Below, one piece after another: positions 2,599 through 64,000 of a stretch of 64,000 bases of DNA. The notes beneath the pieces are model-generated. The model did not search any database, was not told where the DNA came from, and saw only the letters and a program-made list of their open reading frames with translations. Both the position numbers and the translations under genes were made by a program. The first letter of the stretch is position 1. Each line of letters starts with the position of its first letter. Source of the stretch: Amoebophrya sp. A120 (taxonomy: Eukaryota; Protista; Dinoflagellata); assembly GCA_905178155.1 (NCBI GenBank), contig CAJINV010000009.1, forward strand, positions 1,746,659 through 1,810,658, written 5' to 3'.

Positions 2599-2920
2599 TC
2601 CTCGAGCCGGCCGGCTGTCAATCCAACAGCCCCCCCCTCTTCTACCTCGCGCCGCTGTCCCCCTCTTCTACCTGCCTCGCGTTGCGCCACAGACTCCAAC
2701 TCTTCCAGGCGGGCCCAAGAAGGTAGTGGCTTCCGAGTAGAAATAAATCCCATCTCCGGGCTGTGCTGCGTCTTCCACTTCCTCGAGTCGGCCGGCTCTA
2801 AATCCCACAACCCCCCCCTCTTCTGCGTCGCGTCGCAGTCCTCTTCTTCTACCTCGCGGGGCGTGACGCACTCCAACTCATCCCGAATTTGCATTGCTGC
2901 CTGAGTGGCTTCCGAGAGTA
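2599..2920. repeat. Imperfect ~180-bp tandem duplication inside the TIR element
   Basis: CCTCGAGYCGGCCGGCT occurs at about 2600 and 2781; GTGGCTTCCGAG occurs at about 2726 and 2906. Confidence 0.7.
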
Positions 2921-5160: not shown

Positions 5161-5246
5161 GCCCTAGGCCCTAAGCCCTAAACCCCAAACCCTAAGCCCG
5201 TGCCAGGTGAAAAGGAGGAGGGCCAAACCCTAGACCCTAGACCCTG
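5161..5246 (+). repeat. Degenerate telomere-like CCCTAAA heptamers
   Basis: CCCTAGG CCCTAAG CCCTAAA CCCCAAA CCCTAAG, then CCCTAGA twice. These are variants of the complement of TTTAGGG. Confidence 0.6.
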
Positions 5247-19100: not shown

Positions 19101-20065
19101 TTCCACCATTCGGCGGCACTAGTGTCACCGCGCTCCATGTCTTCGATGACTGCAGGGGTGTACTTTTTTGCAAGTCTGCTGTCGGCCTCTTGTGCTTTTT
19201 CTCTGCTCCGGACCACTCCTGGTGGTATTTTCCTCTTCGCCGGCTTCTTTATAGCGCTGATCTTCATCTCCAGCGTCACCAGGCGGTGATCGCTGGAGAT
19301 GTTTGTTTTTTCCACCACCTGCATCTTTTGGAACAACCCCCGGTCCCGGTGCGACACCAGGACCCTATCATATTCCCGCTGCCTGCGCCCCTCTGCTTTC
19401 CAAGACCCTTCGAAGGTGAGCCGCTTCCGCCACTGTTTGCGGCACAGACTTGACAGGTCTGTAAGCTGGCATGCTGCTGCCATGGCATGCAGTCTGTCTC
19501 GGTTGTCGGACTCCAGTGCGAAACTGCTGTGCAGCCCGCATCTGCCGACGACGTAACTCAGGTTCGACTCTATTAGTTCGAGCTCCGGGCCCCCAAGCTC
19601 GCAGTTGTGGTCGCCGCCCACTACAATAATGTCATGCCTGCTGTGCTGCTCGATGTCGTCCTTCAACATTTTGTAGTAGGCGTCTTTTTTCTCCGGGCTG
19701 GCGGTGTTGGTCGGCGCGTAAACACTGTATAGATGTACCAGCTTCCCGTAGAAACTCCGTATCGTAATCCGCATCATGCGCTCCTGCTGCGCTTCGGAAA
19801 CTGTTACTACTTTGATGTTTGCCCGCACCAGCACAATGGTGCCGCCGATTGCTGCGCCAGTGCTGTTCGGCACTGCCCCGCCGCCGTAGGCTTTGTAGCC
19901 GCCGGGCCACAACTCTCCCACTAGCCACGCGCGAACGCGCGTCTCCTGCAGGAGAACTACGTCCAGCCGCTGTGCCTGCGCGTCTTTGATGAGCATCAAA
20001 AGCTCCGGGGACCATCTGTTCCTGCTTTCTTCTCGTGTGCCAAGTGTCCGGACGTTAAATTAATT
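16196..20065 (-). mobile_element. RTE-like non-LTR retrotransposon, 5'-truncated
   Basis: 14-bp TSD AAAACCATTATTAT at 16182-16195 and 20066-20079. (GTA)n 3' tail at 16196-16209. Single endonuclease-RT ORF. Confidence 0.93.
16322..20059 (-). CDS. APE endonuclease + reverse transcriptase ORF of the LINE
   Basis: APE motifs FNVRTL, LQETR, SVYAPT, GDHN, SDHRLV. RT motifs NYRPIAL, FIDFAKAFDS, GIRQGSALSPLLF, YVDD, FKYLG. The frame is open to 20059 but has no upstream start. Confidence 0.95.
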   Translation of the reverse strand, partial: FNVRTLGTREESRNRWSPELLMLIKDAQAQRLDVVLLQETRVRAWLVGELWPGGYKAYGGGAVPNSTGAAIGGTIVLVRANIKVVTVSEAQQERMMRITIRSFYGKLVHLYSVYAPTNTASPEKKDAYYKMLKDDIEQHSRHDIIVVGGDHNCELGGPELELIESNLSYVVGRCGLHSSFALESDNRDRLHAMAAACQLTDLSSLCRKQWRKRLTFEGSWKAEGRRQREYDRVLVSHRDRGLFQKMQVVEKTNISSDHRLVTLEMKISAIKKPAKRKIPPGVVRSREKAQEADSRLAKKYTPAVIEDMERGDTSAAEWWKRFETDLVSTLERLRKLAPAGPQKPWISEETWKKIGERKTAKGKKQKVARLTREINKLVKADKQRWVEEKIQTLKRADDSGNTRVVYETVRQLAGRARGRQQELPGPARIWTEFWGDIFGKERPIAPECVRQTRTWKRCEEQIQKSEPEEDWCEGLEAVPSQEEVVAALRELKSGRAFAGPIPAEFARECPTVQAVLVALVRRIFRGDDLPPEWGEAVIAMLHKDGIRADPKNYRPIALISLGEKLVSLVILRRIEKGASKCLDTRQKGCRRGLSTRHAVFQLLRDIESSNKQGRRALYTFIDFAKAFDSLSWPVLHRICRQQGMPENICRILRDMYDRNARIKIRLGEEKFAAEFKQKCGIRQGSALSPLLFIICVDWAMKQFVATMVEEEFWTREEAEDQALRWLGYVDDLVIKSNCRNEAEFALGELASACRFVGLDLNVKKTKLMAVNPEAESRKNPEAMMERCALDGAEGWMIDWSGVDWADEWRREADRLPPASQSYNGLAPTHLIVWDDPASGVTAIASKMSGWATTQDGESIRLMRLGRKKHVLEARNEFVCEKCGDILPDETALLFHQATGFCRPNKTVKELRTLRTCRLIEQKKKSKPKATKPQHARKLRHNGREVEAVPSFKYLGTEVAQDGTTDTEVARRCGIATGVVKQLQPIWRDRSLPPHLKAELYRSLSLSVVLYNAEAWSLSPAGDTALRKFQHNALRQILGGHYRNEDRSRAELCEELGVQLIEDEVQGKRIAWVAHACRGDWKEGSVGRIEKEIHKNTPRGRQIKQDLEAFGLTLELIKEQKPTGIAIRATLNAKRKIQPKKRAKGQKAGQPKTTKRTAMEQERRQRLEQQRQEQEEKARETIAQISGKVWTKRPRSKYNLTAQSEQGSVSFRVSSFNFCENSGMEEATVLGVIFQKDRHTGTWNTA

Positions 20066-26877: not shown

Positions 26878-29800
26878 TCATTTCTTCTTCCCCTTCCCCT
26901 TCTTCCCTCCACCTCCCCCAAACTGCCCGCGAATTGCCGTGGGCGGTAATACCTCGTCCGGCCCGACGGGTAGTGTTTCGCCCGGGCCCAACCGGCTCTG
27001 CACGTACTGCTTGAGGTCTCGCAAAACCTTCACCTGCTCAAGCTTTTGCTTCGACAGGAGATCCCAGTAGATGCCGGTAGGTTGTGGCTTTGCCTTTTTC
27101 TCCCGGGGAATGCGGATCACTTTTGTCGGCGTGAGAATGATGTCCACACAAACGTCGTGGGGAAGCAAGTATGGTTCTTGTGAGCCCGGCACGCTGGCTC
27201 CTTGACACGATGCTGATTTTTCCGGTAATAAAGCGTTTTCAGCATGTTCTCCCACTCGTCCCTCGTCGCCGGCCGCGCTGTCATCCGTCTGTTTCTTTCC
27301 TGGCGGAGGTGGTATGTCCGTGCAGAGTTGGCAATCGTGGACGTGGGTCAGGACCGGCGTGTTCTCGTCGATCTGGCCCATCATTCGCAGCACGCCGTAC
27401 TCGATCTCCGCGAAGCCCTCGCCTTTGCCTATCCGCGCGCCGTTCTCCGGGTTTACCGCGACGCTGCCGATGACCACCAAATCCACCTTCAGGCTGATTT
27501 CGTCAAAGTCCAGCCGCTTCCCGATCGCGTTCGCGCCGCCGCTTGTAGACACGTAGGCGAGCGCCTGGCTCAACGAGTTTTCGTTTTCCCGACGCCACGT
27601 TTCGAGAATCGCGGGCGTGATCTTGCTGAAAAAGCCCTTCAGCAACCGCGGCTGCGGGACCAGCAGGGTCTTGTTCTGCTTCAGCGTGTTGAACCGGATC
27701 TGCTTCTGTGGTGTGTCCGGGTTCACCTTAACGACAGTGGCGGCGATGAATTCTGGAATGTTCAGAATTTGCTCCGCGGCGCCGGCGGCGTTCTTGAAGT
27801 TGGGAATCCGGTGGTGCACGGGGCGCGGAAATTCGGCGAGATTGTGTTTCTCAAGGTAGTCCCAGATACGGTGCCGGATCGCCCATTTCCAGTCGGTGTT
27901 GGGCCTCGTCGTCGTGGTGCTGGAGGCCGAGGACAGGAGCACGTCCGACTTCGTCTTGGAATTCGGCCGAGGTGGCTGGGCGGTGCTGTTTTCTTTCTTG
28001 CCGCTCTGAAGATCGCCTGGGCTGGAAGCGTGCTTCGTCGCGGCCGCTGCGTCTATCTCCTCGGTTTCAGCATCTTCACAGTTGGCGTTTGCCGGTGCCT
28101 TACCCTTGTTCCAACGCCCCCTGCCCCGCGTGCGGGGCTTTTTTTCCTTCTCGTCCGCACCGTCTGCGCGGGCCTGCTCAGTGACAATATCGTCTTCGGC
28201 GCGAAGAGCCGTGGGTTTGTTCAGTTCCTTGCGGAGGTCCGCGCTAGATGAAATAGCAGCAACGTTTTTCCGCGCTTTTCCGTCATCCTCACTTCTGCTG
28301 CTGCAACTAACGAAAGGCACCCCCTTCCCGTTGTCTGCCGAGAGGTTCGCGGTTGTAAGCAAATCTGCACCTCCGACATGCGTCGCGACCAGCGCGTCGG
28401 CGAAAGCCCTACCTGACCGAAAGGCCGCACCTATGTTGTTGCCGCACAGCCAGTCGCCCACGACGCCTAGCCTGTGCTCAGCCTCATACAAGAAGCCTCC
28501 GGTCGCTCCTGAGTCGCTTGTCGTGACCGGCAGCTGATTCGCGGGAAGTGCTGCGCCCCACAGCTGCAGGTGGCGGACCTTCACATCAAAATCGACGTTT
28601 TTATCTGCGACGGTGCTGCTACCGAAGCCAAAGCTTATAGCGACAGCGTCTGGAAGGTTTGTGCAAAATTCGCGAAATGCTCTGCATACCGCAGTCGTGA
28701 CAGTCTCAAAAACGTCATTCGGAATGTTTTCTTGTGGGCACTTATGCTTGCTCGCAAATTCAGGCGTTGTCAGAATTGTCCAAAATTGGGTGCTTTCTTT
28801 CCCCGTCAGCTTGATGTGGTCATGAAGATCTTTTTTCTGGCCATACTTTCGGCTGTTGTTAGCCACAGTTTTCAGAACGGGATGGTTTTCAATGTTGAAA
28901 AGCCAGGGCGAAGATGAAGCGCCCTGCGGTGCAGGAAGGGTCGTCCCGACACCAGCACCAAGATTCGTTTCCAGCACGATTGAGAACTGCGATAAGATGT
29001 CCAGTTTGTTGCTGCTCGGACGATACGGCTCCGCAGCCTTACCTTTACCTTTTCCTTTGTTGCTGCCTCGTATCGCGGGGTCAAAGTCAAAGCTTAAGTT
29101 ATCTTTTTCTTTCACTGTCTCCGATTTCATCTCCTCCTCCTGGCTCTTTCTTCTCGCGTCCGAAGCCTCGTCGCCGCTGACGAATCGGCATTTGAGATAT
29201 TTAGACGCAATCTGGGAGTGCCGGATCCAAGCCGTGTCGATGAGTCTGGTGGCACATTTGCCGCAGTGCGCAATCACCAAATGCGTGTACTTCTCCTTTC
29301 GCCACGTTTGGTTCTCCTTAAGCAGCCAATGGTCTTTCGCGAAGTAAATTTCGGAAATCCATGTCTTCAAGTGCAGGGGGTATCGAGGACAAGAATTCAC
29401 TAGATACTGCGGCAGTGCAGCGACGCCTGCGTGAGCGATCGCACCACCACCAGCCTCAGCACGAACCGTTTTCGGATTTTTCCTTGTCTCATCGGATGAT
29501 ATGTTTGTGGCAGTCGCTGCGGCGGACCTGGCACTTGTTGGCAGAAGTAACACGTCCTCTTTGATGTCAGCTAGCCTATTGCTATTGTCTGCCTTGTTTC
29601 CTTCTACAGCTGCGTTATAATTTCCGCCCTCTGTGACTGTGCGCGTTCGAAACTGTTTTCCTTCTTTTTTCTGATTCTGGCCGAGGCAATACTCCAGGTT
29701 GAGAACTTCTGTTTTCGGATCGACCCGCCGCACAATCCCGGCGTCCAGGAGTTCCTGGGCTTCTCCTTCGGTGAACCCGCGGAAGACCTGACACGCATGA

Positions 29801-30054
29801 TCGACAGCGACGGCGGAATTGTCGAAAACTCGAGAACTGCACCGCCCGCCGGGGTAGACCTTGCCCGTGTCGAAAACGGCGCACTTGATGCCTGCGCCAC
29901 TCAGCCTGTGTGCCAGCGCTAGCCCCGAAATGCCACCCCCGATAATTGCCACATTGGACGACACGCAGTCGTCAACAGCGGTTGCGCTTTTGCCCTTCTC
30001 GTCTCCATTTTTTGGCGTATTTGTATTTCCGACATTCTTGGTGTGGCCCCGCAT
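26878..30054 (-). CDS. Fusion of a renalase-like FAD oxidoreductase and an MTHFSD-type 5-formyl-THF cyclo-ligase-like domain
   Basis: N-part: AIIGGGISGL, GGRCSSR, DHACQVF, GDWLCGNNIGAAFRSG. C-part: IWDYLE..FPRPVHHRIPNF, VKVNPDTPQ, VDLVVIGSVAV, GARIGKGEGFAEIEYG, VHDCQ, HDVCVDIILTPT. One uninterrupted ORF. Confidence 0.88.
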   Translation of the reverse strand: MRGHTKNVGNTNTPKNGDEKGKSATAVDDCVSSNVAIIGGGISGLALAHRLSGAGIKCAVFDTGKVYPGGRCSSRVFDNSAVAVDHACQVFRGFTEGEAQELLDAGIVRRVDPKTEVLNLEYCLGQNQKKEGKQFRTRTVTEGGNYNAAVEGNKADNSNRLADIKEDVLLLPTSARSAAATATNISSDETRKNPKTVRAEAGGGAIAHAGVAALPQYLVNSCPRYPLHLKTWISEIYFAKDHWLLKENQTWRKEKYTHLVIAHCGKCATRLIDTAWIRHSQIASKYLKCRFVSGDEASDARRKSQEEEMKSETVKEKDNLSFDFDPAIRGSNKGKGKGKAAEPYRPSSNKLDILSQFSIVLETNLGAGVGTTLPAPQGASSSPWLFNIENHPVLKTVANNSRKYGQKKDLHDHIKLTGKESTQFWTILTTPEFASKHKCPQENIPNDVFETVTTAVCRAFREFCTNLPDAVAISFGFGSSTVADKNVDFDVKVRHLQLWGAALPANQLPVTTSDSGATGGFLYEAEHRLGVVGDWLCGNNIGAAFRSGRAFADALVATHVGGADLLTTANLSADNGKGVPFVSCSSRSEDDGKARKNVAAISSSADLRKELNKPTALRAEDDIVTEQARADGADEKEKKPRTRGRGRWNKGKAPANANCEDAETEEIDAAAATKHASSPGDLQSGKKENSTAQPPRPNSKTKSDVLLSSASSTTTTRPNTDWKWAIRHRIWDYLEKHNLAEFPRPVHHRIPNFKNAAGAAEQILNIPEFIAATVVKVNPDTPQKQIRFNTLKQNKTLLVPQPRLLKGFFSKITPAILETWRRENENSLSQALAYVSTSGGANAIGKRLDFDEISLKVDLVVIGSVAVNPENGARIGKGEGFAEIEYGVLRMMGQIDENTPVLTHVHDCQLCTDIPPPPGKKQTDDSAAGDEGRVGEHAENALLPEKSASCQGASVPGSQEPYLLPHDVCVDIILTPTKVIRIPREKKAKPQPTGIYWDLLSKQKLEQVKVLRDLKQYVQSRLGPGETLPVGPDEVLPPTAIRGQFGGGGGKKGKGKKK

Positions 30055-31171
30055 CAGATCGGGCCATAAATTAAAGACAACTTCAATTATATAACTCGTC
30101 GGGGACGGGGACAAAAGAAAAGAGAGAGAAAATAACGAAATGAAAAATGCGAGGGTGGTGGAGAAATGACTCGATACGTCTACGTCCTGATACTGATCGT
30201 AGAGAGATGAAGATTGATGTAGTCGTCGATGTAATCTGAGTATGTTGACGAGAGCTCATGCTCGATGTCAGTCCTGGTGGAGCCTAATTTTTCACAGAGA
30301 GACACAAATGTCTTACTTTTTGCCAGGATTCACGCCGACATGGGCATCGCGGTGGCGACTTTTTCCTTTCGTGGCTCATCAGATCGAGAAGGAACTTGTC
30401 TCGTCGACCACGTTGAAGACAACAGAAGATGCACTGCATCACTTAAAATAACCACTGAAAATAAATGGTGCGTGCGACCTTCTCCTGAAAAGACCGACAT
30501 ATTACGTCCTCGCGCGCCGTCATAAACAATACCCAATTCATTTGAATTCCTTCAACGTGATTTATTTTTTTTTTGGATAATAGAACATGAGCGGCGGACC
30601 TCGCGCCACGCGGTTTCTGGCAACAGCCAACGTCTGAATTCGAGCCTGGAGCTGGCGACCTTTATCAGGTTACAACAAGATAGCCGACATGGATTGGGTT
30701 CTGAGGAGCACAACAGTCGTGCGGTGTACGTGTACAAGTCTGCTTTACAATCATCATTATCATCATCTGCTTGTAAAAAAAATCGGGCCAGCACTCTCGT
30801 CTTTAATGCCAGCATTTTCTGGCGTGCGGGCTACGGTCTGAAGCTAATAAATCCTTCTGAGACCACGACGAGTAGGTCCTTTGTAAGAGCTTGCATAAGC
30901 TTATACACCGTTGCGAGAGCAGCAAAAAAATCAATATCAACATAAAGATATACATAAGGCAGTGCACTTTCCTTAGCACTTCACCTCAAAAATGCATGCA
31001 GCATGGCTCATTCTGAACCTGAACCACCTACCAAAAAGGGCATGCTAATGCGTCAGCAAAGTTCAAAACAAAATCAAACTTGTCGTCTTGAGTTTTGCGG
31101 ATTTATTTTGCCATCTACGAACGTACGTTCATAGAATGGTCCTTCTCAAGAATCACGGTGGGCGTCTCTAG

Positions 31172-33365: not shown

Positions 33366-34696
33366 GGTGGGAGTTGTGATCCCAATATGAAGCATCTTCA
33401 CTGGGTGGCTCCAATGCGTGCCTATCGTCCTCGGCGCCCTACAACTGCAACAAATGTTTTTGCTGCAAATCAATCGGCGGGCTGCTCGCTTCTTCAGGCG
33501 AACGATATCTATGTTCCTGCTTGTTGAAAAAGAATGACGTGTGCGCTTCTTAAGGTGAGCGGGAAAAATCCTCTCGCATACTACTAAGCAATCCTGAAGG
33601 TAAGAATATCTGCAGAAGAGTGAACCCCTCCGCACACCAGGTGACGTTTCACCGCTTGTTGAAAAAGAAAATCAAAATCATGTTGAAGTTGATAAATGCT
33701 GACCGGCACGGGGTTCAATCACAAAAGATAAAGATGTATTCTATTCATTGGTTGTAAGAAAACCGTTTTCTGAGAAAATGAAAAATCAAAATTAGAAAGA
33801 CTGTATGTGCAGCTGGTACTGCATCTATAGTTTCATCGCACGTAGAAAATGAAAAATGAAAATCCAAGCGGCACTGCGTCATTGATTCCAAAGTTTCTTG
33901 CTGTTGCTGCGCTGCACATGCAATTGCAACAATCTCACGCTGTGAATCGGGTCTTTGACTTTGGATATGGTAGTCGTTGCCAGACGGATTTCTGCTGTGC
34001 TCCTTGTCCAGGCTCCAACACAAATACTAGTGCAGCGCTTTGAAATCAGTTTACTTATAGGAGTGTCGACACTACTACTTCTACTAGACGGGATCTCGAT
34101 CTGCTTGCTTCTGCATCTGTACCTGTAGTCGTAGCTACAATACGCATTAAAAAGCCTGTCGGTCTTCGATGTACTCATGTTAATACATGTTCTTGATCCA
34201 CATCAACATCCACCTGATCTTGTCTACTCGCAAGAAGCGACCACGGAAAAGAAGGAGCGACCTTGTCTTCACGGCTGTCTTGTTCAATGATAATTAGTAG
34301 TTCCCAGCACTCTTGGTGGTCTTGTCACTGTTACTTTCTAATTCTAGGCAAGGAGAGGGACAGCAAGAAATTGGATTGAGGTCCAGGCGGTTTCATCCTT
34401 GGTTTGATTACACAATGTAGTGCTACAAGGCAGTCGCTTGAGTCTGACGAAGGTCGTCAAAGAAACTAACACGGCTGACGGCGACAATCATTGAGATCAA
34501 GGCCTAGATATCTGGTGGTGATGGAGAATAGTATCGGGAAAGCAAAATACTTCGTGTTCGTTTTTTTATTACGAGTATCAAATTTCACTGGAGACCATGT
34601 TAATACCTATCGTTATCAGCTGTGCAAGAAAGAAGGAAACGTAAACAAAGTGGCTATCGCTCCATCTGTACTTGTTCTGTCCGTGAAAGTAGAAAG

Positions 34697-36751
34697 TCAG
34701 CTCGGTTTGGGTTTTGGTTTACACTTCATGAGGGCCTGACGGACGCAGGTGCAGACCACATCACCATGCTGGTTAAACATGGTGTGCTCCAGCGTGACGA
34801 TGCCCTGGCCCGGCCTGGATTTGGACTCTCGGTTTTCCAGCACCACGGTCTCCGCACACAGCGTGTCTAGCGGGAACACTGGTTTCGGAAATACCACCTT
34901 CGAGAAGCCCAGGTTCGCGATGGTGGTGCCATGTGTCGTCTCCAACACTGTCATGCCCACGAGCAACGCGAGCGTGAACATCGAGTTGAAGAGCGGCTTT
35001 CCGCCAAACTCGCTAGATTTCGCCGCGAGCGTGTGGTCCAAGTGGATGGGGGCCGGATTTAGGGTCAGGCAAGTGAAAAACACGTTGTCCGCTTCGGTCA
35101 CGGTGCGCGTGAGCGCGTGCGGAATCTTCAGTCCAACGCGGAGCTCCTCCAGGAACTTCCCGTGGTAGACCGGTTCTGGCGGTTTTCGCTTCAAAGCCGC
35201 TTGTTCCGGCTCAGTTGGCTTATCATTTATTTTTGCACGACCCTCGTTCTTCATCGACACAGTTGTACTCTTTGGTGCAGGGTCTTCGGCGCGCCCACTG
35301 ATCTCCACGCCGGACTGCTTTCCTCTTTGCAAAATCTTTTTCGCGCGCGTGTAGTGGGGGAGGTCCACCATTTGGTTCTTGTATACCACGGCGCCTTTCG
35401 TAGCCTCCGCGGACTCGAACAGTGCCACAATTTCCTCCGCCTCCTGCATTTCCATGCTGGTCGGCGAGAAGAGTTTCGTCAGCTGCTCAATCTGTAGCGG
35501 GTGCAGGGAGAGCTTCCCGTCGAACCCCATTTGCTTGGCCTCGGTGGTTTCGTGCGCAAAGCCCGACCCATCCTTCACGTCCGTGAAAACGCCATCGATG
35601 GCCTGGATATTTGCGGCTTTCGCAGCGAGCAGACACTGGGTTCGTACGTTCTGGAATACGGGGAGGTAAGAGGACGTGGACGATGTAGTTGACGGATTCT
35701 TTGAAGATACGGCTCCCATGTTGATCGTCTCCACTGCGCTTGTTCGCGTGCTCGTCGCTCCGATCGCTGCGGACAGATCTTCGCACCCCCAGGTAATTGC
35801 TGCTATCCGGTCGCTGCCCGCGGCGATCTCCTGCAGATTCAGCACGGCCAGGGGGGTCTCGGTCGCGATGGGCAGAAGGACGTGGTCAGGCCGGAGCAAA
35901 CCGCTGTTCTCCAACAGATCCAAGTCCTGTTTCGAGCTGATCTTCGGCAGCATGAAGCCATCGGCAAGCTGCGCAGCTCGAAGATCGTCGTGCCAGAACT
36001 CGGAGTCCAGCGGGTTGATGCGCACCAGAATTTCCGGGTGGGGGAGCGAAGAGCCCGAGCCTTCTCCTTTGCCGTGAGCAGAAAGAGATGAAACAAGAGA
36101 GGACGATGAAGTTCTTCTTGCGTCGATGTTCTTCTGTAGGAAGTCTTGCACCAGCTGCCGGCCGCGCTGCTTGTTGGGAAGTAGCACCGAGTCTTCGAGA
36201 TCCAACACCAACGTGTCGGCGTTCAAGCTCAGACATTTCTGCAGGAACTTCTCGCTGTCCCCGGGGACAAAGTGCACCGACCGTCGCAGACGGTTTTTCT
36301 TGTCGGGGGGTATTCTAATGGTCGTACTGAACAAGCACGATTTCTGTAGTTGATGTGCCGTGGTTGCACCAAACAAACGGGACGAACAAGCTCGGTTTGT
36401 GAAGAGTGTGCGGTTGGAGAGGCTGACGAAATGTTGATGTGCTTCACTGCAAACACTTGTTCTGCCCGTACAACAGCGAGAACTGCTGTTGATAGCCGCG
36501 CTTGCGCGCAAAAACAATGGGAAGGAGGTCGTGGACAGTGCAACAGGCCGTCTGCAAGATTGATACTTGTAGGAAGGGTAAGTAGAGTGGTTTCTAATCG
36601 AGGACATCCTTCTACTAGCACTGCCACATTGGCGCTGCTGCAAACTCGAGCAGACCGCAACTACCGGGGCCTCGGGCGTCGGGTTGAACGAGGAGGCTCG
36701 GGCGCCACTCTTTAGCAGCGACTGATGAAACTGGAGACGGAGAGCGACCAT
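34697..36751 (-). CDS. CitE/HpcH-family acyl-CoA lyase fused to a MaoC (hotdog) hydratase, with a transit-peptide-like leader
   Basis: CitE motifs [47 protein letters not shown]. MaoC motifs [48 protein letters not shown]. The leader from MVALRLQ is Ser/Arg-rich and poor in acidic residues. Confidence 0.9.
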
Positions 36752-39050
36752 CTTGCTTGTACAAACAAAGGTAGATAGTTGTAGAGCACAAGAAGAACAG
36801 GCACCACTACAACTTGCCCTTATCTTTATCCAAACCCGTAGCGACGGAAGATCGATGAAATACGAATACCAGCTTCTTTCGTCATTATTTCCATTTCCAT
36901 TATACATTTGACTTTTGTCTGTTGCACATCCACTTACTACAAACATATTGAAGTTGATTTGTTTCTCATCATGTACCGCTCGCTGATGCCTCACGCACCT
37001 CTCTCGTCGTTTGCGCTTGCTCTTCACACTGATGCACCACCACTGGATGTCGTTGGTGCCTAAACTACATCTACAGCTTCAGGTGCTCGCTTAGAAATTT
37101 GGGAAAGGAGCCAGCGGACGTTTGGACGCTCAGAAAGTGAATTTTTCCTTCCCGCAATGGCAAGAGATCACATCATCTAAGAACATCAATCAGGGGAACG
37201 CGAACGTAGAAGTACGAAATAGCGATAGACGAACACCTAGACCACGCACCAGAATGTTGCGGGGGGTCGTCTTGCAGCTTTTGGAGGCGGTCACGAGACG
37301 AGTGCGACCTACTGGCTTTGTTCGAGAAGTCTATAGCTTTTTCTTTCTGTAAGTGTAACATGTACAAGTAGTGGAAAAGGTAAGTATTACACTTTCCAAG
37401 TACATGATACTTGTGTTGGTTCTTTGGGGCTCCTGCTCAGTCTGGGATTAGAGCAGAGCTGTCTTGATGAAGTTCATCATACATAAAATTGAAAGGACAC
37501 CGCAGTAGAAGTTGTAGAGGACGGCAAGTAGCTTCTTGCTACTGTGTTGACTAATTTCGTTGATGATCTACAACTTGTGGTCCGAGACCAAGTTGTGGAC
37601 CACGAGATATCTTTTACAGACCTCCTGACCCTGCTGAGTACCTCAGGTCTTCAAAAAGTCGGCGCTTCCTCTACTAATATAAATATATACCTTCTACTTC
37701 AGTAGTTCTAGTACTAGTTCCTATAACTACCCTTAGAGTTAGACTTGGCAACGAAGGTCTAGATTGTCCACTTCAACTTCTGGGGGGCAGCTGCGTATGC
37801 GGCGGGATAGCGCCGGGATGCATCAGGTTGCTGGTGCGGCAATCCATCACATACGGAGCAGCAGCGCCCCACGCCATCCAAAGACCTTCTTTGTATATGG
37901 CTTTTACCGATCTCTCATCCTTGAATAGTAGTGATTCTCTATCTCTTTCGTCACGTCATGCCCTTGATAGGGAAGATCCACCCAAAAGCAAAAGGTCAAA
38001 CACCCGCGCCAAAGCTACTTGTGCGAAACCAAACAGAAACCCCACTGAATGCATAACAAGTACCATCGGCCCGGGTGCATGGGTATTACCCGCAAGAAAA
38101 AGGTCAAAAAGTGGCGCAATAAGTTGTCGTGCAAGCTACCGCGCTGGGTGTTGTTTGGACCTTCCAGATCAGAGAAAAATGGTTTCCTGGACGTATCTAT
38201 AATTTATCGCTTGCACCACGAACGGAACGAACCTGGCCTCTACGATTCGCGTTGCTTACTCTGTCCAAGAAACACGCATGTCAGTGACGAGATCGAGACA
38301 AAGCATTAGCGAGCAGTCTTAGTGTCTGTGTCATACTCATAGTAGACCCGTCTCTCTCTCGGGTGGATTGAGAGAAAAAGCGTGTCAATGAAATAAAATC
38401 ATACATGTGAAGATAATCATATGTAGCTTTTTGTGTTGTACAGTACTTCCATGAGTTTATTTTTAGTCTTGATGTTCTTTTTTCTGACGTCGCAATACTG
38501 GCTGTAAGTAACGAATTATGGCTGCTGATGGTGCTCCTGCGTCGCAACTTCCTTTTTTCGATAAAAAAAGAAAAAAGAGAGACGCGGTCACGGAGATCGT
38601 ATAACTACAACTGTCTGCAGAAATAAATCATACACGTCGATCAAAAGAGAGAGGTGGTCACGGCAGGAGCAGTCGTAACCCTAACGAGAGCTGCAACTTG
38701 CTCACTTCTCGTTTCGTGGGCCTTGACAGTGTGCAGCAAGCTGTGGCCCCACCAGCAAATCAAAAATCAGTCAAGGCGGCAGCTCCACGTCAACCAAAAG
38801 TTTTTGCAGCGGCACTGCACGCACCTCTTGCAAGAAAGTTCAGAGGTCCACCTTGTCCGCGTCGTGCTAAAGAGTGTGAACCATATGCATATACTCCTTT
38901 CCGATGGGTCTTAAGTCTTCCGTAATTTATTTTTATTATGATTTCTAGCACCACTACCTCTTTCAGGTTACCGCCCAATGAACTTGAGAGCCAGCATTCC
39001 TCGAAGCAAAAAAGTATAAAAAAGGAGCGTGCGGATGCGAGTGCCGTTCC

Positions 39051-52267: not shown

Positions 52268-54457
52268 GGAACGGATGTCGTTGTCGACCTTGTTGTGCCC
52301 TTTAATTGCCCTTTACCTGCTCTAGCAGAAAAAGAAACTGGAAGTGCCTTGTGACTTTGCTTCTACCTTCCGCCAAACGCAAACACTAGTCCGCGTCGCG
52401 TACAAACAACTGTTGATCTTTGTCGTTGCGCAAGGAATTCGGCCTCAGTATTCATGGATGCGGCTAGGTTCGTCACGAAGGTGCGGCACTTCTTTCATAA
52501 GAAAATTGACACAAGCAGGCACGGCTAAAAACATCATCCGAGAAATGATCGCGCGAGCCATGTGCATCTGGTGGCGCTGCAATGCTTTAGGAAAGTGACA
52601 CAATATCGCTCCGGGCTGCATGTGCTCGCCGATCTCGATCAGACAGGTCCTCGATGACGACGTAACTTGTACGATCTGGGCACTTTTGCACTCACGCTAA
52701 CATCGATCAAAAATACATGATTTCCGTTTATCTCGTGGCTCCCTCGGCAGCGATTTTGGTGTCAAATTGTATCTCACGACGCTCAGACAACTGCAAGTTG
52801 CACGGGTAACTAGGTTTCTGAAGGAAAATTCTGGTGGTTCGACGATGAGATTGAGATTCTCGACGAGGGAGCGCGAAATAGTACTGACTACAGGCGGCAC
52901 CACGCGCCAACGCCATACACGCCACCGGATGAACGAAGATCTTCGCGGCGAGGAATCCCTGGTGTTTTGCTGCGCGAACAAATTTCCTCTTCTTGGCTCT
53001 CTTCCGTGACCGTGGCTTCGTTTCGGCGGGCGTTGAAATATAATTTTCAAAAAGCCCAAACATCAAAAATCTACTTGCTTCTTTATTTTTAAAACAAATA
53101 CTGGCCGCGAAGAGGGCAGCATACGTATTGGTTTCTTCTTTTTCAACCGCCTACCGAGAGCTGCTTTTGGCACGGTGCCAGCTAAAGAAGATAGAGCTTG
53201 AGCTTCTGTTCATCTTCCGTCGATTCCTTGTCTACCTCCAGTTTTTGTTTCAAACAAATCGATGGACTATCGTCGTTTTATGCATCGTCTTTTTTTGAGG
53301 AAGAGGCGCAAAAAATTGTGTGAAAGTGGTGAACTATCTGAGGCATCGCGTTTTCAAGTGCGACAAGGCGAGACATTTAGGAAATCGCTGCCGTTTTTTC
53401 CTTTGGTCTTGCGACGCTACGGTGTGTCTGAGTATTCTAGGGAAAAGAAAGAGCAAAAACACGCTAAAGATCGTTGCCAGGTCGTCGCGTACAGGCGACT
53501 ACTTGTTGGAAAGCATCCTGCTTTTTTTCTTGTTTCTGGGCTCCATGGGATTCAGGCGAAAATCTTACCATACCCTCGCAAGACCTTGTTTGAAAAGAGC
53601 AGCAGAAAAGACCAACAAGATCTTCCAACAGGTCTTGAGAAGGCCTACGCCTAACAAGACAAATATTAGTATAGTCTAGCAACTGAAGTCATCGCATTCG
53701 GGTCGTATTATTCTAATTCTCCACGTCGAACGGGACCCACTTCGAAAAGATTAAAAAATATAGTCCTGCGGCGAAAGGGCAAAACCACGAAAGATGACGA
53801 CGCTACGGGCACCTTATTTCTGGCGTGATCTTTCAAATGGAAGAGACAAATCCTCCCTCTGTGGAAAATGTTCAAAAGTCGAAAAGAAAAACCCCGATCC
53901 ATCCGTTTGAAACCTAAAGCACGGAACTCTTGTACCGATTTTTTGTTGTTCAAAAAAATCTATACTGTGACTGACTTCAGACGATGAAAACACGTGTCTT
54001 CTAGTTTTGCAGTCGTCCCAGATATAGTTTCGTACATAAGTACCTTCTTGGTGCTAAGTTTTAGCTAAAAATAAAAATATAAGCAAGGAAGTGCTGCAGT
54101 TGTTTTGGATGCAGTGTCAGTACCTTAAAAAAGCTGTCGTGCCTATATTCTCTACCGTCTTCCAAAAATCGAAAGCGTTCTTTTATTTATCTCGATCTCA
54201 AAAAATAAAAAACTCGAAAGCCTCTTTGGTGAAGGTGATGCGACGCATCTTGTTCATAACGGAACATACTGGCAGGAGTAGTGCTCGTGTAGCTTCAGAT
54301 ATTAGTAAGTACAGAATCATGGTCGTGGTCCATAGAATGTCGCAGCGAAGGACATTTTCGAACCCCGCGTGGAAGATCTTCATGAGGCGTCTATCATTAT
54401 TGCGAGGAGGAGGACTGCTGTAGTGGTGTTCCGTGACCTTCTCCGACTCCGTCACCA

Positions 54458-56305
54458 TCAGTTACGCCGATGACCTCCGTCGTTGACAAGAGTTTCCACC
54501 CTCTGCAGGAACCGATTGACATTTTCGGATAGATTATTTTGCCCCTGAAGAAGCGTTTCGTGCCCTCCAGAAAGGCTCTGCACGCTTTCGGCCAGGTGTT
54601 CGTGACGTCGCAGCAGGGTATCGTGCAGGCTTTCTTGCCCCTGGGAAACCTGGTCTTGTCGCTCGATTAGGCTCTGCTGTCCCGCAGCAAGCTGCTGCTG
54701 CCCTTCGCGCAGGCGGTCTTGCCCCTGAGAAAGCTGGTCTTGTCGCTCGATCAGGCGCTGCTGTCCCGCAGCAAGCTGCTGCTGCCCTTCGCGCAGGCTT
54801 TCTTGCCCCTGAGAAAACTGGTCTTGTCGCTCGATTAGGCTCTGCTGTCCCGCAGCAAGCTGCTGCTGCCCTTCGCGCAGGCTCTCTTGCCCCTGAGAAA
54901 ACTGGTCTTGTCGCTCGGTTAAGCTTTGCTGTCCCGCAGCAAGCTGCTGCTGCCCTTCGCGCAGGCTTTCTTGCCCCTGAGAAACCTGATCCTGCAGCCG
55001 GTCAACCAGAATGTCGACCCTGGCGCCCTGATCCGTTCCCATTTGTGCGATTTCCCCCCGCACGGTTTCGAGGCCGGCAGCAAGCGATGCTGTGCCTTCG
55101 GCGATACGGGACTCCAAGTCTGCTCCCTGGCCAAGCAAAGTATCCCCTAGTCGTAACTGGTCCTCCCGTAGATCCGAGGTTGCCGTTAGTACGGCCGCAA
55201 TGTCGTTTCGAACCGTGTCAAAGCGTGCGTTCGTATTCCCCGCGTGCTCCGCCATGCTGTTTTCCAACGCGGTGTGCACGTTTTCCACGGTCTGCTGCAG
55301 TTCCGTTTGCACTGTCTCGATGCGTGCCGATAAATTAGTAGCGCCCTGGTCAACGATGCGCCGCAGTCCCTGCAGAGTCGTACGCAAACTAGCCAGCTCG
55401 TTGCTCCACTCGCCACCGCGGGCGTCTATCAGTTCCTCGGTAGCCTGAATCTGGGTCAACAGGGACGCAAACTGGGATGCATTGGATTCCTGTGTGGCCT
55501 GCAGTTGCCTCTGGACCTGCGTGTCCACACTGGATGCCTGCTCAGACTGCAGCTGCAGCAATTGCTCATGCCTGTGTTCCGTGTGCCACGCGGAAACAAC
55601 CAGCCCGACGGCAAGAAGTAGGATACCGAACAGAAGAGCGAGCAGGGCTGCTCCGGTGCTTGTTTTGCAGGATCTCGACCCAGCAGCAGGTGATGTTGTA
55701 GTAGTTTTTCCTTTCGTGCTGGGACGGACGATAAGGAGATCCTCCTGAGAGCGCTCATCATGATCTCCCAGCGCGGTACAGCCTCGCGTTCGTGCTGTTG
55801 TCGGATTCTTTGTGCCACCTCCGAGCTTGGCCTTGGTCTTGATTTTGCTCTTCGTTTTGCCGCTTTGTCTTTCTTCTACATTATCTTGACCTCCTTCCCC
55901 TTCACCAAGAGGAAGATGAGGGAGACCCTCAACTTTTTCCCGTTCCAAGGCGCTAAGATCAATACTATAATCGTGCTGCCGAAGTGCTTCTTCGAGCAAC
56001 GGCACGTCCTCGCCGCCGCAAGTGACCTCCACTCGTACCAGCTCCTCCTCAATCTTGTTTCTCGCTCCCGCTCCTGCAGCTGCAACATGCATTGCGCATA
56101 TCTGCTGTATCTTGCTGTTGTCGACGGTTTCTGCTTGCTGTGGCTCGACGCCGGGCGGAGAGAAAAATGGTGACTTAGAGATTGACGCTCGACACCTGCG
56201 CTTGTCCTTTTCGTTTTCCTCGTCTTCGTCTTCCAGCTCTAGCAACAATGCGACCCGCTCCTCACCGTCCATCCTGATGTTTTTATCACTACAACTTCTT
56301 TTCAT
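54458..56305 (-). CDS. Single-pass membrane protein with a long heptad coiled coil
   Basis: 615-aa ORF. TM segment ALLALLFGILLLAVGLVVSAW followed by a Gln/Leu-rich coiled coil. Confidence 0.8.
   Translation of the reverse strand: MKRSCSDKNIRMDGEERVALLLELEDEDEENEKDKRRCRASISKSPFFSPPGVEPQQAETVDNSKIQQICAMHVAAAGAGARNKIEEELVRVEVTCGGEDVPLLEEALRQHDYSIDLSALEREKVEGLPHLPLGEGEGGQDNVEERQSGKTKSKIKTKAKLGGGTKNPTTARTRGCTALGDHDERSQEDLLIVRPSTKGKTTTTSPAAGSRSCKTSTGAALLALLFGILLLAVGLVVSAWHTEHRHEQLLQLQSEQASSVDTQVQRQLQATQESNASQFASLLTQIQATEELIDARGGEWSNELASLRTTLQGLRRIVDQGATNLSARIETVQTELQQTVENVHTALENSMAEHAGNTNARFDTVRNDIAAVLTATSDLREDQLRLGDTLLGQGADLESRIAEGTASLAAGLETVRGEIAQMGTDQGARVDILVDRLQDQVSQGQESLREGQQQLAAGQQSLTERQDQFSQGQESLREGQQQLAAGQQSLIERQDQFSQGQESLREGQQQLAAGQQRLIERQDQLSQGQDRLREGQQQLAAGQQSLIERQDQVSQGQESLHDTLLRRHEHLAESVQSLSGGHETLLQGQNNLSENVNRFLQRVETLVNDGGHRRN
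54624..54992 (-). repeat. 84-bp coding tandem repeat (28 aa), just over 4 copies
   Basis: Near-identical QDQFSQGQESLREGQQQLAAGQQSLIER units with period 84 (e.g. 54813 vs 54897). Confidence 0.95.
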
Positions 56306-57276: not shown

Positions 57277-60200
57277 CTACTTTTTCTTCTTCCCACCGCC
57301 GGCCTTGGCCTTTTTGTCCTTTGGACCCTTCGGACCGGCAGCTTGTGCCCTCAGGGCGGCCTCTATCCACAGAAAAAAAACCCATCCCCATCCATTTTTT
57401 GCATGACAGACACGGGATTTGATGTATGTTTTGCATGAAAAATTGGATGTCGTGGATGGGTGTTTTTCCGGGATAGCCTCCTCCGCGGCTTTCTGGCGTT
57501 CCAGCTCCAGCCGCTCCTGTATGAGAGTGCACAACTCCCCCTCACCCTCATTTGTATAGCATGAACGGCAATCATCATCATCATGTAGTGGACACCCGCA
57601 CCCAGCGCCACAGGTCAAGGATCCCCTCCCCGGGGGGTAGGCGAGCGGCAATACAAGCATCAGCAAGAGTGCCGGTTTTGCATGACAGATTTGCAGTGGA
57701 GGGTGGTGCTATTTGGGCTACCAGAACTTGTCATGCAAACAGTCGAAGAGGCAAAGGGAAGGGTGGATTGGGTTTGGGTATTTTGCATGACAAATGAGGG
57801 GGAGGGGGAGTTGTGCATTGTCATATCCTGCTCCAGCTTGTCCTGTTCCAACGCCGCCGCCTCCAGCTCCTCCTCAATTTGTCTCTGCTTGGCCTCCCGC
57901 TGCAGCCGGCGCTCCTCCAGCCGGCGCAGCTTCTCCTGCTTGCGCTCCTCCTCCTCCCGCCGGAGCTGCTCTTCCTTGATCGCCTGCAATTTGATGGACT
58001 CCGTGATGTCCGGCGCGTTCAGGATCATGTCGTCCGGGTCCAGTTCCACCGGGCGCAGCTCCGCCAGCTGCTCGCTGGACATGGTGGTCAGCTTGTTCTG
58101 CGAGGCGATGGTCTGGTTCGAGGACTCCCCGCCCCGGCCGTACAAGACGCCGATCTCCCGCTCCAGTTTGTGGAAAATCTGGGAGTACTTTTGGTCCTGC
58201 TGCCAGTCGTCGACGCTCAGCTGCATGTCCCCGATGCGGCGCCCGAACTCGCTGGTACCCAGACTGTTGTTGTAAAACACGTTCCGGAGAGTATCCTCAG
58301 CAAAAACGTCCCCACCCCATAGTCAAGTTGGGAATCTGGCAACACAAATCTCCAAGTTTTGGAAGCTGTGCATGACAAGTCTCCCTGTGCAGTGTAGGGC
58401 TGGCTGGCAAGGAAAGCCGCATGAGAAAGCCATTTTCCCATCGTTTTTACAGCATTACAAATTCCAAAACACGATTGGAAATTCCTCTCATGGAACTGCG
58501 CATTGCAAATGTTCCTGTCATTGCACATGTGCATGACAACTCTGTCGTGGGCACATTTTTACTCAGAATAGAGCGCGCTCAGCTCGAACAGCTGGTCGGC
58601 CACGTCCTCGTCTCCGTCGTCGTAGTTGATGCGCTATCCTGTGCAAAAGTATCGCACTCGTACGAATTGCAGTTATGCATGACAAATTTCCTTTCCAAGG
58701 TAAAACAGCATGACAAATTCAATTTTTCATGCTGAGAAAATTTGTAATGAAATTTATACTAGTACGATGGTTTTGCAATTCATATGTGCGCCCCCGCGGA
58801 CACCAGCATGTCAAAAATCGCCTTCCGGCCCAACTTCGACGCCTCGATGATGGGGGTCTGTCGGTAGAAGTCCTCGACCTCGAGCAAGTTCACGTAGATT
58901 TTTTGCTTTTTGCGCACCGTCAAGCTCGCGTAGACACTTTTCGCGTTCTCCTGCTCCTGCAACAGAATCTCACGCTGCAAATCGTCTAGCTCTTTGCGCA
59001 TCGTCGGGCTGTTGCTGTTCGTGTTAGTAACGTTCAACAACTTCAGCATTTTCGCGCTCGGACTGCTCGGGGCGGCTGCCGCAACACCAGCGTCATCTTC
59101 GTCGTCAACGTTTTCTGTTGTGAGTTGCTGGTTCAGGACATCCGTTCCTCCCGTGTTCTTCAGGGCCTGCGCCACCACGTCCGCCTTGAAGCGTGTCCCT
59201 TTCGGCCAGTCGGACTTGGCATCGAGCAGCAGCTCGTCCAGTGTGGGGATGGGCGGCGGGGCGAGCTCTTTGCGAATGCGGACGTTGTAGTCCTGCCGCC
59301 GCTGCCACATCCCCTCGCACTCGACGAGCAAGTCCCTGTACTCCTGCAGTTCCTCATCCAGCTCCTTTCGCCAGTCTTCCGCTTCGAACTCGGGCGGGAA
59401 AACCTTCATCTCGTCAACTTCAATCTTCATCAGCTGGGCCTTGGACGGAGAAAGAGCACTTGCTGGTGATGGTGCAGCGTTCTTCTCACTCTGCGTCTGC
59501 CCAATCTGCTCGTTATTATTTCCGCCATTTTTGTCCACTATCTCGACATTCTTCCGTCCAGTGCTAAGTGGGGTGTTGGCAAATTGGACGGCAGCATGCG
59601 TGCCCTCGGTGTTCATCGGATCACTTTCCAGTAATTGCGGTAGGGCGACGTCGACATTGCCTCCTGCATTTTTCCTTTTCGGGTCATTGTAATCAGCTTC
59701 CGTAATTTCTATTTCATTCTTTCTTGCTTCATCAATTTCGCCATCTTCACGCTCTACTTCCCTCGTCTGTGGTCCGCCCAAGGTTTCTTCGTCGCCACTG
59801 ACTGCAGCCGTGCGGATTATTTCGCTTGCTCGACCGTCTTGATGCCGATCTACGTCAGGCGCACCCGCGGGAATAATGCGGCCATGTTTAGTATTAGTCC
59901 CCTCTCCACCAGCAGCATCTTCTTCATCAGGCTCTAGCGTTTTCTCCGATTCGAGACTATGTGGATGCAGAGCTTGGCCTTGTTGCTGATGATGAGTATG
60001 ATCCCTAGCAGCTACAACAACCGTCGCCGCATGCTGTGGGGATGTCGAGCTTGACGACGCCGAGGCTCCGCGATTAGAATTTGCCGTTCTGTTACTGGTT
60101 TCTTGTTCACCTCCCAACAAGATTTGCGACATGAAGGGATAGTCTTGCGCGTTGGCCGCCGCCCATTTTTTCTTGTACCGCTCGACGGCGCCCAAAACCA

Positions 60201-60729
60201 GTGGCTTGTAGGCGGTTTCTTCCTCGATTACGTAGTCCTTTACCATCGAATCCAGAAACTTGAGCAGTTGCTTTTCAGATTCTTTCGTGGAATCGTTCTC
60301 CAGCTGGTCGTCTTCCCGGAAAAACCCGCCGGCCACCATCGAGTCGATGCCGAACTTCCCGCGCTTCCCGGCCTTCATCGGGTCGAGGTAGTGCTGCGCG
60401 TTCAGTTCCAGAATTTTGGAGCTGAGCACCTTCATGTTGTACCGAATGGCGTAGTGGAGCAGCGTGCGGCCGAACTTGTCCTGGAGGTGAAGTTCCTTCT
60501 CGTACAGTTTCGAGTAGAAATCGGAGGAATAGGGCCCGGCGCGGAGGTTGTCCGTCGTCATCAGCATCTCCATCAACTCCTCCTCGCTCATGCCCTTTCT
60601 CAACGCGTAGATCATGCGGGAACCGAACTCCTGGAAGTCGATGTCCTGCGTGTGCAGCGAGTGGAACCGGGGTACCCGTCCATCCAGCACGGCCCCCGAG
60701 GGAATCAGCGTTTCCGTCACGAAAGGCAT
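57277..60729 (-). CDS. Ankyrin-repeat protein with C-terminal coiled coil; five exons, 861 aa predicted
   Basis: Ankyrin motifs DKFGRTLLHYAIR and QTPIIEASKLG...LVSAGAHIN. Exons 60729-58785, 58629-58571, 58286-57826, 57514-57476 and 57358-57277 total 2586 nt with no internal stop. Junctions can slide within the 5-nt repeats. Confidence 0.85.
57364..57475 (-). mobile_element. Introner A (112 bp)
   Basis: TATCC...GGATA inverted ends. Perfect direct repeat GAGGC (sense strand) on both sides. Can be spliced as a GC-AG intron. Confidence 0.85.
57520..57825 (-). mobile_element. Introner B (306 bp)
   Basis: ~36-nt inverted arms (TATGACAATGCACAACTCCCCCTC vs TATGAGAGTGCACAACTCCCCCTC). Perfect direct repeat CAGGA. 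Can be spliced as a GA-AG intron. Confidence 0.9.
58292..58570 (-). mobile_element. Introner C (279 bp)
   Basis: 24-nt arms (TATTCTGAGTAAAAATGTGCCCAC vs TATCCTCAGCAAAAACGTCCCCAC). Direct repeat CGCTC/CTCTC. Removal plus 5 nt restores the frame (..SALRNVFY..). Confidence 0.85.
58635..58784 (-). mobile_element. Introner D (150 bp)
   Basis: ~34-nt imperfect arms with TAT...ATA ends. Direct repeat GCACA/GCGCA. Removal plus 5 nt restores the ankyrin-type GAHINYDD. Confidence 0.85.
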
Positions 60730-62878: not shown

Positions 62879-63688
62879 TTACAACTGCGCCCCGTATTGT
62901 GAATCCAAAAGAGCCAGCCAGCGGTGGTTTTTCCCGAGCGAAACTCGCCAGCAATTCCGGATCTTTTCGTGCAGAACTGCTTTCAATCGGTGGTCGTTTC
63001 GGTTTTTTACTAATGCTTCGCGATTTCGGTCCCCAAGCTCAGCGTCGTCCCCCTCGCGATCCCAAACTTCCTCGAGATATTCCTCCAATACGACTCCGAC
63101 GTAGGGATGGCAAGAAGAGTAGAAGGCCGCGCGGGAAAGTGGACTTTTTGTTGATCTTCCTACTGTCTCTGTCGTGCCGTCAAGAGAATGGTCCTGGGCG
63201 GTATCGCCACGCGCATCACAACTCTTTCCTGAAAAGAAGTTTTCAACGTTATCGGCATACAATTGGAATTCGCGGTCGCGCCGTTTCCCGAGCGCGCCTA
63301 GTGCTTGAATCCGGAGTTGCACCATTCTGTGCACCAGGTAGTGATGTTTTGGCAGCCGAATCGTGTCGAGATCGGAATCCCGAAGAAAGTCCTGCAGCAC
63401 ACGTAGGGTCAGGCCGTTCCCGCCGCGATTAATCGCGTCGTCGAACGCCCGGCAAACTTTTTCGCAGTAATGTTCCTCCTTGGAGAACGGTACTGCCCAC
63501 GAGGGGGCGTTTTTTTCTGAATAGCCTTTGGTTTTTTCCATTAGCACGTGCAAGAACCGGAGCGATCCTTGAACGCCGATTATCATCAAGAAAAAAACGA
63601 GCATGCCGTTGTGGCTGGAATGACTATATATAACAGTTCGAATAGTGCGTGTGCGCTGCATCAACAGCAAGTGCGAGTGCGAGCTCAT
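62879..63688 (-). CDS. Hypothetical protein (start uncertain)
   Basis: 269-aa ORF on the gene-bearing strand with a hydrophobic N-terminal segment. No domain recognised. Confidence 0.45.
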   Translation of the reverse strand: MSSHSHLLLMQRTRTIRTVIYSHSSHNGMLVFFLMIIGVQGSLRFLHVLMEKTKGYSEKNAPSWAVPFSKEEHYCEKVCRAFDDAINRGGNGLTLRVLQDFLRDSDLDTIRLPKHHYLVHRMVQLRIQALGALGKRRDREFQLYADNVENFFSGKSCDARGDTAQDHSLDGTTETVGRSTKSPLSRAAFYSSCHPYVGVVLEEYLEEVWDREGDDAELGDRNREALVKNRNDHRLKAVLHEKIRNCWRVSLGKNHRWLALLDSQYGAQL

Positions 63689-64000
63689 CTTCTTACTTAC
63701 ATAACAAAATGAAAATCTGCATTGCTGCAGATATCATATTAGCTTTTGCTTTCGTATTCCTCCATCTGCATCTTCTTGTTGACCTGGAGTTTCACTTTTT
63801 GTTACTTTTACATAAAAGGCACTGGCACACTAGTTCTTTTCTCTTTGATATGAACGGGGCCGGCCAGATACTGGTGAACTTCGGCGGGCCAAAACCACTC
63901 CGCTGTGCTTTCTGAAATTTCGCTTATTTTTGTGCTCAACAAAGACACGGCTGTGCGGGTGTGGTCTCCAGACAGGATCGATGGCGATGGTTCACGTGTG

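Follow-up and report, generated by a model that had tools for sequence, protein, structure and literature searches.

How introns that lack a GT-AG pair are cut in an organism with no detectable U1, and how such introns arise, are the questions raised by a gene in a 64,000-nucleotide stretch of Amoebophrya sp. A120 DNA (hereafter the window). Nearly all spliceosomal proteins and the U2, U4, U5 and U6 RNAs have been reported in A120, U1 has not, and 35% of its introns are GT-AG (PMC7789003). The gene contains four inserts, A to D, each of which begins with TAT, ends with ATA and lies between two copies of a 5-nt repeat. The features are as follows, in window positions:

57277 to 60729, minus strand: host gene, 861 aa once the four introns are out; the protein has ankyrin-like repeats, and its C-terminus is coiled and rich in lysine
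57359 to 57363, minus strand: downstream 5-nt repeat copy of A, GAGGC in mRNA sense
57364 to 57475, minus strand: insert A, a 112-nt TAT...ATA hairpin; 117 nt are absent from the RNA-like form and the frame is open
57476 to 57480, minus strand: upstream 5-nt repeat copy of A, GAGGC in mRNA sense
57515 to 57519, minus strand: downstream repeat copy of B, CAGGA
57520 to 57825, minus strand: insert B, 306 nt with 36-nt arms; 311 nt are absent from the RNA-like form
57826 to 57830, minus strand: upstream repeat copy of B, CAGGA
58287 to 58291, minus strand: downstream repeat copy of C, CTCTC; the mismatched base is intronic
58292 to 58570, minus strand: insert C, 279 nt; 284 nt are absent from the RNA-like form
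58571 to 58575, minus strand: upstream repeat copy of C, CGCTC; the mismatched base stays in the RNA
58630 to 58634, minus strand: downstream repeat copy of D, GCGCA; the mismatched base is intronic
58635 to 58784, minus strand: insert D, 150 nt; 155 nt are absent from the RNA-like form
58785 to 58789, minus strand: upstream repeat copy of D, GCACA; the mismatched base stays (His in the public protein)
57401 to 58715, no strand assigned: eight copies of an internal 8-mer, GCATGACA/TGTCATGC, every one within the inserts

An initial annotation had described inserts of 112, 306, 279 and 150 nt with TAT...ATA ends and 5-nt repeats, whose excision with one repeat copy each gives a single 861-aa frame. 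The coordinates bear out the sizes and ends, and the frame is reproduced on the minus strand. The repeats are perfect at A and B and have one mismatch each at C and D. Inverted arms of 24–36 nt had also been claimed: stems do close all four ends, and that length is valid only with gaps because ungapped arms vary (36 nt at 92% in B, 30 nt at 77% in D, a 14-nt core at 93% in A). Insert C has 15 of its first 20 nt paired, and the predicted folds of A to D, in which stems close the ends of all four, have z-scores of -5.5, -6.1, -3.3 and -4.5.

A scan of the window with the combined rule of TAT ends, 5-nt repeat and paired arms returned four matches, exactly A to D, against a mean of 0.1 and a maximum of 1 on 100 block shuffles. 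Allowing any terminal trinucleotide gave 30 matches, compared with 7–8 in two shuffles, and no TAT-ended match in the window beyond the host gene. Candidates at 33607–33730, 63581–63850 and 52729–52880 failed the repeat or the arm test and were rejected. The 8-mer copies start at 57401, 57680, 57729, 57785, 58370, 58531, 58677 and 58708, seven of the eight in sense polarity, and the remaining 63 kb of the window holds two more. Six of the eight insert arms carry the motif TAT + 7 nt + AAA; B has CAC in place of AAA.

Evidence for removal comes from assembled contigs of two samples of one study, runs X1 and X3, which were classed as RNA by guess. An X3 contig of 3255 nt starts at 60888, 159 nt upstream of the ATG, continues past 56800 and skips 117, 311, 284 and 155 nt, with no foreign letters in its listed pieces. 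By its record positions, the first X1 record agrees with X3 at the junctions of A and B. Each insert is therefore absent from the transcript-like X3 contig together with one repeat copy, and the earlier proposal that the inserts behave as introns stands.

Two other runs, X5 and X6, behave like genomic DNA. X5 contigs span the right border of A, the left border of C and the right border of D with at least 31 letters per side and 0 differences, and X5 record 10 (57800–58328) runs through one insert, an exon and a second insert without branching. Further X5 contigs end or start exactly at a border and have unlike flanks: among those listed, for four of the eight TAT/ATA borders, at least 113 do so at 57520, at least 139 at 57825, at least 84 at 58292 and at least 82 at 58635. 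Taken with the joined transcript-like contigs, these border contigs show that the inserts are real, multi-copy, bounded by TAT and ATA and removed from the transcript-like form. Some X5 and X6 joints link a B-like end to a D-like start; a reading of these as circle junctions was dropped because letters intervene in the listed cases. Three raw RNA runs (2026) gave 0, 0 and 2 reads, too few to judge the gene, and a search of viral contigs with the B arm returned no match.

The public model of the host gene (GSA120T00004290001/CAD7959962.1, 900 aa, Amoebophrya sp. A120) is, letter by letter, the window gene minus B, C and D, with the register seen in the transcript-like contigs. Insert A is translated in frame by this model, its 117 nt giving 39 extra amino acids, and is either an in-frame intron that the model overlooks or retained as a minor form. 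In-frame elements can thus go unnoticed in the public A120 protein set. Ankyrin matches of the host protein are weak and fall below the Pfam cut-off, its Atlas look-alikes are ankyrin proteins, and insert D splits one of its ankyrin-like repeats. A homologue search with exon 1 as query found the protein's own A120 record and no other relative.

The initial annotation had left room for novelty. TAT...AAA ends, 3–5-nt repeats and hairpins are, however, in print for A120 (PMC7789003), and because the rule seen here matches those published introner elements, the inserts are a real feature of an already known class; the finding as such is not new. Farhat et al. (2021, PMC7789003) report 29,850 copies in 1954 families, with non-canonical introns, hairpins, arms of TAT + 7 nt + AAA and direct repeats of 3–5 nt, a 5-bp repeat serving as the example in the legend of Fig. 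S19. Like the published elements, A to D have ends joined as a hairpin by an inverted repeat (at least 8–20 nt), leave the RNA without GT-AG (as judged from contigs of runs classed as RNA by guess) and are repeated in the genome (at least 82–139 contigs at the four listed borders). The inserts are almost certainly A120 introners. Whereas that study gives repeats of 3–5 nt and calls the cut positions variable (legend of Fig. 3), the duplication found here has a strict length of 5 bp and one register fits the informative junctions. Insertion in both orientations, the shared 8-mer and the omission of A from the annotated introns likewise go beyond its text, though its figures may differ.

The A120 families of Gozashti et al. 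(2025, PMC12130899) are similar in belonging to the TIR DNA class, in placing many introns in one gene and in having mostly non-canonical ends, and many are described as 'co-opt both' for their splice sites. Apparent duplication lengths there range from 2 to 6 among 21 of the 58 A120 rows, and the filter used demanded a common 5'-3' orientation. Four short insert motifs had no match in 14 supplement files of that paper. In the text of PMC7789003 and PMC12130899 we found no statement of a strict 5-bp duplication, insertion in both orientations, a fixed register, parity of GT and AG between sense and antisense, or the 8-mer; such statements may stand in figures, in supplement rows or in subscription papers. 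The accessible part of a tunicate paper (PMC13326754) does not mention Amoebophrya.

To what kind of element do the inserts belong? They had been taken for one MITE-like family. Common sequence among them is confined to short patches of up to about 30 nt, and each has its own relatives at 83–94% identity; judged by sequence, A to D represent four separate families, which have their ends and an internal 8-mer in common. The MITE-like, multi-copy character itself is upheld by the X5 border contigs and by a strict 5-bp duplication. More specifically, the B-arm pattern was found at 85 loci, all in one related assembly, JACKZZ01. Of 83 anchored elements, 72 with a paired far end were kept and 11 dropped. 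In this B family test, partners were picked by arm score alone, without use of the repeat. Identity between the flanks was 0.914 at 5 nt, compared with 0.23–0.34 at 2–4 and 6–10 nt (72 elements). The 5-bp duplication was perfect in 47 of the 72 and had one mismatch in 21; two pairs of loci are duplicates. Elements of the B family are mostly 200–260 nt long.

A separate scan of the loci, which did require the repeat, yielded 129 distinct elements. For 90 of them a codon model gave a confident strand; the other 39 were dropped from strand-dependent counts. Among the 104 elements with enough flank, excising the insert plus 5 nt left the frame open in 72, compared with 46–50 at out-of-frame offsets and 4 when the element was retained. 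A retained element would disrupt the frame in 89 of the 90 stranded cases. The motif TAT + 7 nt + AAA is present in 91 of 106 non-B arms of this second assembly, and GCATGACA in 113 of the 129 elements; a further 117 matches to the motif fall outside called elements and probably belong to uncalled ones. Pfam assigned names to only 3 of 118 exon frames. The smallest of 54 gaps between neighbouring called elements is 37 nt, a minimum that may reflect assembly bias. The first repeat base falls at codon position 3 in 43 of 90 elements, and repeat base 1 is weakly biased towards C and base 5 towards G.

Individual loci can be read against known proteins. The exons of locus L018 align without gaps to an orthologue in strain A25, colinear at the protein level. 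Locus L080 (positions 1–1424) is a DEAH-box helicase (DHX36-like) gene with three TAT elements within 770 nt, two of which have mismatched repeats, at positions 4 and 5. Its last two exons match DHX36 residues 145–180 and 182–222, so that they too join in colinear order. Homologue searches with L080 and L020, aimed at telling register 3 from register 4, gave no match.

Relative to the coding strand, B family copies divide 21:20 between the same and the opposite orientation (41 copies, strands inferred from codon use), and the split stays even at three margins of the strand call (22:21, 17:17 and 11:12). The D family divides 7:7, again with inferred strands. Because random strand calls would also split evenly, the calls were checked by other criteria: ORF length supports 23 of 27 calls, and homology five of five. 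Four of the five homology-checked copies are opposite to the B copy of the window. Splicing of such opposite copies is deduced from frames and homology in JACKZZ01 rather than from RNA; in the four window inserts the 8-mer points mostly one way. The sense polarity of GCATGACA seen in the window was rejected as a general property, with 83 sense and 79 antisense occurrences in the 90 elements.

The presence of relatives in both orientations within genes suggests excision by shape and distance, which is likely to operate here instead of normal splice signals, and it speaks against a strand-specific branch or acceptor signal. It also bears on origin. Reverse splicing is expected to yield a single orientation. 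Spread by that route is disfavoured because both orientations occur, and for the same reason we infer a DNA transposase; insertion at the DNA level is very probable. A fixed 5-bp duplication and either orientation (strands inferred) are also what characterizes MITEs and other TIR transposons, and the elements are most likely non-autonomous DNA transposons. Neither an empty site nor an autonomous element came to light in the sequences analysed here. Farhat et al. did not find a transposase in A120 (PMC7789003), and an integrase-like TIR element reported there, family 38, is a lead only (PMC12130899). The MITE introners of Micromonas, Aureococcus, Symbiodinium and Polarella similarly have inverted ends and a target duplication and leave the mRNA unchanged (PMC9860276, PMC11282704).

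What, then, marks the cuts? The initial annotation had found no GT donor at any insert border, possible GC-AG and GA-AG pairs at A and B, and no canonical pair at C and D, and a table of registers agrees on each point. At A and B these pairs occur at register 3, one of several registers that their perfect repeats allow. Insert C is cut after repeat base 2–5 (joint 58286–58571, 3 letters of slack) and has neither AG nor GT in any allowed register. Insert D is cut after repeat base 3–6 (joint 58628–58784); an AG at register 1 is passed over, and no allowed register gives AG. The further claim, that A and B use the GC-AG and GA-AG drawn from their target, fares less well. Of 90 elements, 8 offer a G.-AG pair on the sense strand and 7 on the antisense strand; because such pairs are about as frequent on either strand, those of A and B are probably due to chance. 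The same parity holds for GT-AG (3 vs 2) and for any AG (37 vs 32).

Repeats whose two copies differ carry the information on register. At both C and D, the base retained in the contig is that of the upstream copy. For the two L018 junctions, comparison with the A25 orthologue scores registers 3–4 best (233 vs 225–229). Where copies differ at position 4, the upstream base gives the likelier codon in 7 of 8 elements. The codon test offers only a weak hint for register 4, because it shows no signal at positions 2–3: the upstream base is favoured in 4 of 8 cases at position 2 and in neither of two cases at position 3, where RNA and orthologue point to the upstream copy. At mismatches, C directly follows ATA in 8 cases vs 1 (p 0.04, uncorrected), from which we claim no bias. 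A single fixed register, with the cut behind repeat base 3 or 4, is fairly probable; its basis is two junctions seen in RNA, two compared with the orthologue, and one stop codon.

Because a mismatch marks the retained copy, existing A120 DNA and RNA reads can set the register genome-wide. Mismatches between the two repeat copies are found in about a third of the elements (46 of 129) and mark which copy reaches the mRNA, rendering the splicing question testable with data that already exist.

Taken together, we consider it probable that the inserts are A120 introner elements inserted by a single DNA transposase, with putative removal by a divergent spliceosome that places its cuts at a set distance from the terminal stem. 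A dimeric transposase would bind the TAT ends, perhaps also the shared GCATGACA motif, and make a cut staggered by 5 bp into which the element could go either way round. In the pre-mRNA, the arms would pair on whichever strand is transcribed and bring the two repeat copies close. Both cuts would then be made at a shared offset, behind repeat base 3 or, with a slight preference, base 4, so that a single repeat copy would remain and the mRNA would be restored. At register 4, TAT would provide donor positions +2 to +4 (N-U-A-U) in either orientation. Spliceosomal donors typically have U at +2. We lean towards spliceosomal chemistry for this putative removal, in which the remaining U2/U5/U6 machinery would be placed by the terminal stem. 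In Table S4 of PMC7789003, T is the second base of every top-ranking A120 site, a pattern that could come from aligner preference.

More tentatively, and somewhat short of probable, we hypothesize that the TAT introners of A120 are made by one transposase that duplicates 5 bp and spliced by a ruler blind to both sequence and orientation. Under the corresponding rule, held with the same reserve, every such stem would be cut 1 nt ahead of its TAT and 4 nt beyond its ATA. If the ruler is true, any insertion into an exon, in either orientation, is an instant perfect intron, and the published 'variable' splice sites are alignment slippage inside the duplication.

Three other accounts were weighed against the spliceosomal one. 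The elements and their insertion could be the same, with an endonuclease cutting beside the stem and a ligase joining the exons. Neither cut has a conserved dinucleotide, the substrate is symmetric and orientation-blind, the stems of A, B and D close the ends on either strand, and U1 is undetected in A120 (PMC7789003), all of which would suit such enzymes; the antisense fold of C, on the other hand, closes its ends poorly. A route of this kind has been proposed for the nonconventional introns of euglenids, a lineage unrelated to Amoebophrya. Those introns have ends united by a stem, as in the predicted folds of A to D, and junction repeats that blur the cut, and a MITE origin has been proposed for them (PMC3935182). 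The euglenid introns, however, carry CA/TG at +4,+5/-7,-6 and pyrimidine|purine junctions (PMC3935182), whereas the elements here have TAT/ATA ends and random junction bases; at registers 3 and 4, A to D have AT, or T plus C, G or T, at +4,+5, and the CA/TG pair is missing. The U at +2 under register 4, like that of spliceosomal donors, and the nearly complete set of spliceosomal proteins together with 35% GT-AG introns in A120 (PMC7789003) also stand against an endonuclease and ligase, which we regard as unlikely.

Alternatively, a permissive spliceosome might take the GC-AG and GA-AG of A and B and near-matches elsewhere, the hairpin being a relic of insertion. Such pairs are indeed on offer at register 3 in A and B, and splice sites from target duplication are known for other introners (PMC9860276). 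Micromonas-type introners carry or co-opt GT, GC or GA together with AG (PMC9860276, PMC11282704), whereas C and D are excised with neither, D ignoring an AG on offer, and orientation is irrelevant here. The donor and acceptor of a canonical U2 introner are therefore lacking at C and D, and the 8 vs 7 of 90 elements offering G.-AG contrast with the 89 of 90 frames that retention would disrupt, making splice-site co-option quite improbable. Least credible, to the point of being barely worth entertaining, is that DNA is the source of the joined contigs, through an allele free of the elements, a retrocopy or programmed excision, with no splicing of RNA. X1 and X3 come without a record that they are RNA, and the X5/X6 joints were judged from the best 15 of 268. 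The unbranched insert-exon-insert X5 contig nevertheless argues against this account, as do the X3 contig, whose start lies 159 nt upstream of the ATG and which is free of all four inserts and, in its listed pieces, of foreign letters, and the published genome-wide RNA-seq support for such introns (PMC7789003).

The surroundings of the gene differ in character along the window, in which an Rfam search returned no match. The window begins with a GCCAA-type satellite (1–247), and its first 6 kb are poor in ORFs, with long inverted repeats lacking TAT ends at 2419–3296 and 3832–3986 and a short telomere-like array of CCCTAA type at 5161–5199. From 9900 to 56305 the minus strand carries ten long unbroken ORFs of 548–1873 codons, none of them with a TAT element; the four elements are all confined to the final 1.5 kb of a single gene, in a stretch whose GC3 is near 0.9. 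On the minus strand, an open ORF of 1245 codons at 16322–20059 has endonuclease and reverse-transcriptase domains and resembles a LINE-like element. Two apparent fusions, also on the minus strand, join an FAD oxidoreductase to a 5-formyltetrahydrofolate cyclo-ligase (26878–30255) and an HpcH/HpaI lyase to a MaoC hydratase (34697–37078). Finally, an 84-bp tandem repeat of 4.4 copies occupies 54621–54988 within a 615-codon ORF.
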